A DNA stretch of 64,000 nt from Camelus dromedarius (Eukaryota): the NCBI RefSeq assembly GCF_036321535.1, contig NC_087449.1, forward strand, positions 25,172,001 to 25,236,000, given 5' to 3'. The stretch's first letter is position 1. Each line of letters starts with the position of its first letter. The position numbers and the translations under genes were made by a program. The notes beneath the pieces are model-generated. The model did not search any database and was not told where the DNA came from. It worked only from the letters and a program-made list of their open reading frames with translations. This document shows positions 8,937 to 58,538 of this stretch, one piece after another.

Positions 8937-9338
<402 letters not shown>

Positions 9339-32047: not shown

Positions 32048-33496
32048 AAAAGTATGTGAATATATCCCTGTCCAGTCAGGGGACTTTATCTTACTAAAAA
32101 CTTGGAAGGAGGGGTCCCCTGAAGACCAGCTACAACCAAAATGGAAGGGGCCATATCAGGTACTCCGGAGCACCCCAACTGCTGTTAAGCTACGAGGGAT
32201 TGCTAGCTGGGTACATCTGTCCAGAATAAAACCTGTAACTTGTAAGTCCCAACAGGAACCAGGAGAGACCTATGCTTGTGAGGCAATACAAGACCTGTTT
32301 AAGAAAAACAAATGATATCATGTAGCGGTAATTAAAACAGTTCATAGTTGCTTGAATATATCCAATTAAAGCTCCTAAAATATATATATTTCAATACACA
32401 GTAGAAAAGTAAAAGTTTCATGTTTAATCAGGATTTTAAGTATTTAACAAGTTCTCAAGGTTCTTAGTAGCTCCAGCTGACTTTGAGATGCCTTAAAGGA
32501 AACCTGGGGCATCTTAGATATTAAGTTAACTAGAATTCTTTAATATGTTAAGTTAAATGTAATCAATAATGACTTTAATAACTGTAAAGAAATCTCTATC
32601 AAATGCAGGTATTTAACCATGTCTTTTAAGTCTTCTGTCTTTATAGAGAGTTAAACTGCTGTTACAAAGGTGCTCCATCATCAAGAAGATTTGTAAGAAA
32701 ATTATGAAGGTGGTTACAACGGTTCCACATCAAGATAATGGCTCTGTGAGGATTCCAGCCCCTACTGCACTTGGATGCAAAAACAAAAGGCTGTCCTGCC
32801 CCTGGGGCCACTAGATTAGGCATTCAGAGGTTTTTACTCCTTGCTAGGCAGGGTCAGCGCCCCCACTCAGCCCGGAAGTAGTTTCAGAAGATGGACCTTG
32901 GCCCCTCTGCAACCCCATAAGATTATGGGAGTAAAATCTCTGAGGGGGGAATGAGACAGGAGGGAAGAGGGCAGGCCACAGCCACTCAAGGAATGACAGC
33001 AATTTAACACCAAAATGGTGGAAGACTCACCTCCCAGTTGGCCTTAAGGATTAAGAGGTTTGACTTCTAGCAGACCTTGAGCTTCATTATGTGCTCATTG
33101 TAACAGCGTGATCAATAACATGCCCGCAGGCGCCATGACAGCCCCAAGGCTAACCGCAAAAGGCCAAAGCCCTGGGAATCCCAGCCCCTTCCCCAGGGCA
33201 GTTGGGTTGATCCCACCTGTAGGCGTGTGAAGCTACCGAGACCATAAAAAGTGACAACCCCACGCCTAGTGAGACCATAAAAAGTGACAACCCCACGCCT
33301 AGTGGCCGTTTGCTCTCTCTTCCCTTTGGAGACGGCCAGCACTCTGTCTGTGGAGTGTGTACCTACTTTTACTTTAACCTGAGCACCCAGTTCCCACAGC
33401 TCTTTCCTTGCCTCTCTTGCCTTACACTGTATGCAGTATGTATATCTCTAAATAAATCTACCTTCACTCAAAAAAAAAAAAAAGTATGTGAGTATA
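32048..33496 (+). mobile_element. Processed (L1-retroposed) ERV1 copy: pol/integrase C-terminus, env-less spacer, PPT, U3-R, poly(A), with 17-bp TSD
   Basis: TSD AAAAGTATGTGA(A/G)TATA at 32048-32064 and 33480-33496. Open frame 32067-32315 reads PVQSGDFILLKTWKEGSPEDQLQPKWKGPYQVLRSTPTAVKLRGIASWVHLSRIKP. PPT ~32942-32951, LTR start TG at 32952, AATAAA 33451-33456, A-run from 33470. Confidence 0.88.
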
Positions 33497-58391: not shown

Positions 58392-58538
58392 TCATGACAG
58401 CACAGTTAAGACTACAGTCCCTCTCTGGCGTTTTAGAATGGCCACAGCTTGCTCATGAGTAACACCTTCCAGAGTCTCGCCATTAACAGCTAAAATCTGA
58501 TCACCTCGCTTCAATTGGCCGTCATCTGCAGCTGCTCC
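58392..58538 (-). CDS. PATJ: PATJ (INADL) terminal coding exon, second half of the last PDZ domain
   Basis: Minus-strand acceptor tttcttgtttatAG|GGA. Translates GAAADDGQLKRGDQILAVNGETLEGVTHEQAVAILKRQRGTVVLTVLS*(TGA), the PATJ long-isoform C-terminus. Position fits PATJ-(L1TD1)-KANK4 synteny. Confidence 0.95.
   Translation of the reverse strand, partial: GAAADDGQLKRGDQILAVNGETLEGVTHEQAVAILKRQRGTVVLTVLS

Follow-up and report, generated by a model that had tools for sequence, protein, structure and literature searches.

Why does an endogenous retrovirus (ERV) remnant in the dromedary genome end in a run of A at the very point where the U5 segment of its long terminal repeat (LTR) would stand? 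The element occupies positions 32065-33470 of the stretch of DNA analyzed here (64,000 nucleotides, hereafter the window), opening with the tail of an integrase gene and continuing through a polypurine tract (PPT) and U3-R to poly(A). An earlier reading made from the sequence alone had explained it as ERV mRNA copied by the LINE-1 (L1) machinery. The features located at the element are as follows, in window positions:

32048..32064, + strand: left target-site duplication, 17 bp; the TTTTT directly before it gives an L1 endonuclease-type TT/AAAA site
32065..32315, + strand: remnant of pol, cut off on its 5' side, that encodes the integrase C-terminal domain (frame open over 32067-32312 and closed by a stop codon at 32313-32315)
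32316..32941, + strand: non-coding 3' region from integrase to LTR, about 630 bp, with no env remnant detected; the layout is alike in family copy L061
32942..32951, + strand: PPT; an identical sequence precedes the 3' LTR of family copy L023
32952..33303, + strand: U3 of the 3' LTR, beginning TG, delimited by LTR comparison
33304..33470, + strand: R region, its start placed by where full-length and R-only retrocopies begin
33470..33483, + strand: poly(A) run of 14 A in the sequence, where U5 would stand
33480..33496, + strand: right copy of the target-site duplication, differing from the left one at 1 of 17 positions

The sequence-only reading had the element start abruptly inside pol, and the comparison with relatives agrees: in eight of them, family sequence runs on upstream where the window switches to the duplication, which maps the 5' break to 32065. 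The integrase-tail frame of 82 codons, which that reading described as uninterrupted, is real, matching Pfam MLVIN_C (E 4.2e-15) and the MLV integrase 2m9u (E 2.6e-11), but it is not special, being read through in two of nine relatives and interrupted in the other seven. Selection on the open frame was considered and rejected, given the two open relatives and the fact that the frame in the window copy has no promoter or start upstream. The window copy, with no promoter upstream of its coding remnant, is dead and shows no sign of function. At the 3' end, the PPT, U3-R and a poly(A) run 13 nt past AATAAA were all located as previously described. The AATAAA lies in R at 33451-33456 and the A-run begins 13 nt on; its first A is the final base of R, and its last four A lie within the right duplication. 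The inferred R start is 28 nt after a TATA-like box, which is doubled in this copy by a 33-bp tandem duplication of U3 at 33233-33298 (second box at 33276); this U3 duplication is copy-specific, being missing from the four other LTRs aligned. The 17-bp target-site duplication at TTTTT/AAAA also stood up, with its two copies 16/17 identical: the 17-mer is present in the window at just these two places, and two matches arose in 0 of 100 shuffles.

A family LTR naturally ending at the switch point would leave no U5 to be missing, and this was part of the outcome that the sequence-only reading had named as fatal to itself. An LTR search of the genome gave 3,238 candidates, of which 40 were scored and 30 fetched (29 besides the window copy). 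In all 29 other LTR matches fetched, U5 follows the switch point, so the outcome in question did not occur and the claim that U5 is normal in the family and absent here was borne out. The family LTR is about 630 bp long, with LTRs 83-93% identical to that of L004; a complete U5 measures about 130 bp and has TCA at its end. An exact 4-bp duplication flanks 21 of the 29 family LTRs fetched. U5 is thus truly missing in the window copy, since all 29 other LTRs continue into it and 21 of them have exact 4-bp duplications; it follows from the same 21 LTRs, with their complete U5, that the family integrase makes complete LTRs, unlike what is seen in the window copy. The U5-type LTRs of the family are nearly all solo, because adjacent internal sequence is absent in 39 of the 40 listed (3' region upstream in 0/40, leader downstream in 1/40); the automatic solo-LTR classing was crude, calling a 4-bp duplication in 12/40 and 15/40, and only its flank test was used here.

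Could the window copy be an ordinary provirus from which deletions removed U5 and the 5' part, beside a pre-existing A-run, with the 17-mer as a chance repeat? Family copies that are 5'-incomplete and have complete 3' LTRs do occur (L065, L067, and L072), and no empty site was seen. Such a deletion, however, must have ended exactly at the family poly(A) site, where 168 copies switch to A-runs, and the 16/17 repeat sits precisely at both ends without chance matches elsewhere. We regard this explanation as extremely improbable. It is very likely, instead, that RNA of an env-less class I ERV was copied here into DNA, most probably by L1 target-primed reverse transcription (TPRT), giving an element that lacks its 5' part, carries a poly(A) tail, and is one of at least 168 such copies. 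The features that the sequence-only reading had cited for L1 copying of an ERV mRNA, namely the poly(A), the long duplication, the TT/AAAA site, and the truncation, were all found, together with mRNA-collinear siblings, and it is from these hallmarks that we infer a dependence on L1. In the sequence of events that we propose, a family provirus would have been transcribed in the germ line and its RNA polyadenylated 13-14 nt past the AATAAA in R. The L1 ORF2p would have nicked the target at TTTTT/AAAA and primed on the poly(A) tail, with synthesis extending over about 1.4 kb and ending within the integrase gene, and second-strand repair would then have left the 17-bp duplication.

The sibling copies speak to the same mechanism. 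The tailed sample consisted of the first 40 of 100 listed sites (168 in all), and a duplication scoring at least 10 was found at the mapped 5' boundary in 22 of these 40, compared with 0/40 at a boundary displaced by 400 bp; in the remaining 18 sampled copies, no convincing duplication was found. The 22 duplications are 10-21 bp long, with A at +1 to +4 in 19, 20, 18, and 17 of the 22, respectively; position -1 is a pyrimidine in 17 of the 22, and the strict endonuclease pattern fits 12 of the 22 target sites. Longer sequence was fetched for 14 internal-bearing loci, 13 of them tailed siblings and one ambiguous; eight have a 5'-boundary duplication and six do not. Copies of the full-length form R-U5...U3-R-poly(A) also exist, with a 15-bp duplication in L066, a 14-bp one in L076, and none clear in L074 and L077; L173 also starts at R. 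One further tailed copy, L069, has a much longer duplication, of at least 24 bp exact and apparently more than 100 bp.

These data also bear on whether the RNA was inserted without the L1 ORF2p, for instance by the ERV's own reverse transcriptase (RT) with repair-mediated capture at a break. The family did encode its own RT, and a duplication went undetected in 18 of the 40 tailed copies, as such a route might allow. Retroviral RT, however, regenerates complete LTRs. Duplications of 10-21 bp at A-rich, pyrimidine-preceded sites, with priming on the tail, are moreover hallmarks of TPRT (PMC5537654). We therefore give a route without L1 very little probability and retain L1 TPRT as the most likely origin.

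The fetched loci show several other arrangements. The two LTRs of L063 are only 83% identical and share no common 4-bp duplication, which suggests that it is a recombinant of two subfamilies. In L055 (oriented 693-1318) and L011, a complete family LTR is embedded in reverse within internal sequence of the family (the overlap in L055 is 4 bp), and in L008, L034, L041, L045, L047, and L061 a second family LTR or piece lies in opposite orientation less than 1.5 kb from the match. A reversed second LTR or piece was thus seen in 8 of 58 non-window matches, a count in which a few loci overlap. These reversed pairs look too frequent for chance, and self-targeting, autointegration, and ERV clusters are candidate explanations. 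Tailed or R-fragment copies also lie reversed and adjoining a family provirus in L063/L034 (just past the 3' LTR) and L011 (just before the 5' LTR).

As for the history of the insertion, in all four sequencing runs compared, which represent three near-identical organisms, contigs extend 41-54 bases across its left junction, and the insertion is therefore common to those three organisms; no contig covered the right flank. No joint skipping the element was found among the 15 joints listed (of 91), from three near-identical organisms. A paralogue of the element's flanks, which would show the pre-insertion state, had no match in the genome, and a comparison of the flanks with 914 kb of fetched family loci gave nothing better than E 0.03. 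The flanks may be an old L1 3' end. The window copy differs by 8.2-8.6% from its nearest relatives, and the two halves of the 22 duplication pairs mismatch at 13 of 346 positions, a value that is biased low. At an assumed substitution rate of 1.5-2.2e-9 per site per year, these values suggest that the insertion is roughly 10-25 My old.

The sequence-only reading had also remarked that this copy sits in the interval lacking L1TD1. Two exons, assigned to genes by synteny (PMC4161310), frame the locus:

9081..9338, + strand: KANK-type ankyrin exon, by synteny probably of KANK4
58395..58538, - strand: terminal PDZ exon of MPDZ/InaD-like type, by synteny probably of PATJ

The two exons fit the KANK4-PATJ interval, which is the site of L1TD1 in other mammals, and the window contains no frame of more than 215 codons. 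The remark was thus true but incidental: per PMC4161310, L1TD1 is absent from all Cetartiodactyla examined there, the alpaca included, and was lost 64-80 My ago. A link of the insertion to the loss of L1TD1 was rejected, and the location is uninformative on the insertion, because the loss is order-wide and far older.

What kind of retrovirus supplied the RNA is best seen in L061, which retains zinc knuckles, protease, RT, RNase H, and integrase in broken frames, with the 3' region and LTR directly after. Its RT scores 201-214 bits against MLV-type RTs and at most 78 against all others (HIV 43-55). These domains show the gag-pro-pol order between TG...CA LTRs, with a tRNA primer site and PPT, and the family has both an MLV-type integrase C-terminus and the 4-bp integration duplication. 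The primer site is complementary to tRNA-Lys(CTT) in L063, L066, L074, L076, and L077; the pre-gag leader is about 1.5 kb; and there are two nucleocapsid zinc-knuckle stretches, the first of them degraded. The family LTR was absent from the best 30 of 78 env matches (0/30), and a tblastx search of the 30 env cores against the family loci found no env between integrase and LTR. An env beside a family copy at L042/L070 was rejected as a candidate, as it belongs to a different nested element with its own LTR. The family is therefore, as far as seen, class I (gamma-like, ERV1) and env-less in the copies examined, in keeping with the earlier assignment to an env-less ERV1. Among the 240 RT matches listed, there was no reference of ERV-W or any other named group, and the best long-coverage identities among them were 63-65%. 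The whale protein P0228 shares 81% identity with half of the RT query, and the best long relatives among the matches listed (63%) are the bat proteins P0003 and P0005, of about 1,160 aa, which have gag-pro-RT domains with no integrase listed.

A subgroup of the family (L074, L075, L076, L077, L079, and L080) has most of pol replaced by about 1.4 kb of AT-rich non-coding sequence, leaving gag-pro only, and is probably non-autonomous. This subgroup was also retrocopied, full-length copies included.

To judge how common tailed copies are, we counted R ends across the genome with strict patterns, which gave 168 of poly(A) type and 862 of U5 type, i.e., 16.3% tailed, with both counts being lower bounds. 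The best 30 internal-region matches (window included) comprise 14 with poly(A) at R, 14 with U5 or U5 pieces, one ambiguous, and one unresolved; among the 14 poly(A)-ending matches, L039 and L046 are one locus duplicated by segmental duplication. As a control, we used env-bearing class I ERVs that share another poly(A) motif, in which one tailed locus, itself found with a looser pattern, stands against 1,096 of U5 type (0.09%). None of 30 env-bearing loci ends in poly(A). Tailed copies are thus about 180-fold over-represented in the family compared with the control, and L1 appears to have captured the family far more often, a specificity that rests on one control group. The genome-wide count of poly(A) versus U5 copies that the sequence-only reading had suggested (168 versus 862, with a duplication in 22 of 40 tailed copies) supports L1 mobilization of the window copy; what that reading had missed is the family-specific bias and the fact that the products are mostly R-only.

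The single tailed copy of the control (G000:C27:13017418-13017456, - strand) has an env match about 640 bp upstream, which makes it a probable retrocopy with env. At four independent loci (L042/L070, L046/L073, L061, and L036), copies of the tailed family have LTRs of the env-bearing control family nested in them or beside them.

The control subgroups show pairwise identities of 76-86% and also of 95-97%. Age alone is an unlikely cause of the bias, because this span of 76-97% overlaps the range of the family; the tissue of expression possibly differs from that of the control. A broader form of this explanation holds that the bias reflects timing and expression only, i.e., high transcription in germ cells during an L1 burst, and no feature of the RNA. 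It finds some encouragement in the platyrrhine ERV-W, which is near HERV-W in sequence and has no processed copies in the account of PMC6995185, where low L1 activity is one suggested cause. Against it, the control overlaps the family's divergence range and yet has only one tailed copy in 1,097, a comparison in which tissue of expression is not matched. We put this explanation at slightly less than an even chance.

The lengths of the 40 sampled tailed copies add a second peculiarity. Two are shorter than 130 bp, 25 measure 130-187 bp, five reach into U3 (250-469 bp), eight extend past the LTR (581-2,751 bp), and none is full length; the lengths were measured as the extent covered by six natural copies, so that variants unlike these may come out too short. 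R-only pieces of 130-187 bp thus make up 25 of the 40 (about 60%). Of the 15 R-only copies with a clear duplication, 14 begin where the full-length copies do, at a GC-then-pyrimidine-rich point about 28 nt past the TATA-like box. This common start points to the cap site and not to random truncation. Three R subtypes occur in R-only copies in numbers of 15, 7, and 3 and in LTRs in numbers of 28, 7, and 5, which are similar shares, and on a tree the R-only copies are mixed among the R regions of LTRs, with 19 label changes versus 20.2 when shuffled (2 of 62 branches well supported). A single master for the R-only copies was therefore not supported, given the shared subtypes and unclustered labels on this weak tree. 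Since the three R subtypes of the LTRs are shared and there is no clustering on the tree, the R-only copies probably come from many loci.

We lean towards the view that the R-only copies are whole copies of short cap-to-poly(A) transcripts, started in a solo or 5' LTR and ended at that LTR's own poly(A) signal. Alternatively, they could be full-length retrocopies that collapsed, either by recombination of their two R repeats of about 150 bp (leaving a "solo-R") or by a jump of the ORF2p from the 3' R to the 5' R. Both of these routes give exactly the observed product, with a start at the cap site, R, a tail, and a long duplication. Full-length copies with two R repeats do exist, and the 630-bp LTRs of the family collapse readily, 39 of 40 U5-type LTRs being without adjacent internal sequence. 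This alternative nevertheless needs about 25 of 40 insertions to have been of 5-7-kb RNA copied in full length and nearly all collapsed through about 150 bp, when in the sample of 40, 15 copies are truncated and not one is full length. Short polyadenylated transcripts that arise through incomplete suppression of the 5'-LTR poly(A) site are, furthermore, on record for foamy virus and MoMLV (PMC3694450). The R subtypes do not separate the two routes. Collapse is a real possibility, though the less likely one, and short transcripts are the favored source.

The closest precedent is HERV-W, as the sequence-only reading had proposed. Sporadic retrocopies of other ERVs occur. According to a review, HERV-W is the sole human ERV group mobilized by L1, with determinants that "still remain to be clarified", and its processed pseudogenes are marked by a 5' R-U5, a 3' U3-R, poly(A), the TT/AAAA motif, and a long duplication (PMC5537654), hallmarks that match those found here. 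The camel family is like HERV-W (LTR17/HERV17, of catarrhine primates; PMC5537654, PMC5016936) in showing the L1 hallmarks family-wide and in its gamma-like RT, two nucleocapsid zinc knuckles, and long pre-gag leader (about 1.5 kb). It differs in its non-primate host, the lack of any env found, its Lys primer site, and a longer R (about 150 bp versus about 70-90 in HERV-W), and the processed share of internal-bearing copies is 14/30 here and more than two-thirds in HERV-W. About 60% of tailed copies are R-only here, whereas in HERV-W many copies fell in a 0-0.5-kb class (PMC5016936), some of which might be R-only. Of the ERV-W traits, the family has the second zinc finger and the long pre-gag region; it has neither a Trp/Arg primer, env, nor the primate range. 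With its Lys primer, no env, and a non-primate host, the family is not filed as ERV-W, with primer site type being a weak ERV-W marker (PMC6995185). By analogy, it would work as HERV-W processed pseudogenes do, as a HERV-W-like variant.

Other systems are alike in part. The platyrrhine ERV-W-like elements share class I membership, a pre-gag region, and a non-Trp primer with the family, but L1-processed copies are abundant here and none were found there (PMC6995185). Ordinary L1-made processed pseudogenes (PMC5753468) likewise have TPRT hallmarks, are dead on arrival, and come from many source loci; here, in contrast, retroviral RNA served as the template, with a single ERV family exceeding the control group about 180-fold. 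The R-only copies resemble L1-dependent SINEs in their size of about 150 bp, their lack of coding sequence, their tails, and their long duplications, and differ in having no single master lineage (on the weak tree) and no U3. Because U3 is absent, they would not be re-transcribed from a promoter of their own. We found no camelid or R-only report in the literature searched, whose scope did not extend to the 2002 HERV-W papers or repeat databases, and in two camelid transposable element papers (PMC8605555, PMC6675863) the word "pseudogene" occurs 0 times.

We tentatively suggest, as a possibility somewhat below even, that L1 captured, in a host outside the primates, a further ERV family wholesale and independently of HERV-W, one in which solo LTRs would fire RNAs of about 150 nt that gave rise to at least 100 SINE-like R-only insertions, and in which a feature of R or the 3' end, of a kind shared with HERV-W, would make the RNA a preferred ORF2p substrate. 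A second positive, apparently separate family and a near-negative control in one genome (16% versus 0.09%) offer a way to test which properties turn an ERV RNA into an L1 substrate. As the R-only class shows, LTRs can seed SINE-sized insertions, which are easily misannotated as LTR fragments, and about half of the family's internal copies escape LTR-pair dating and provirus counts.
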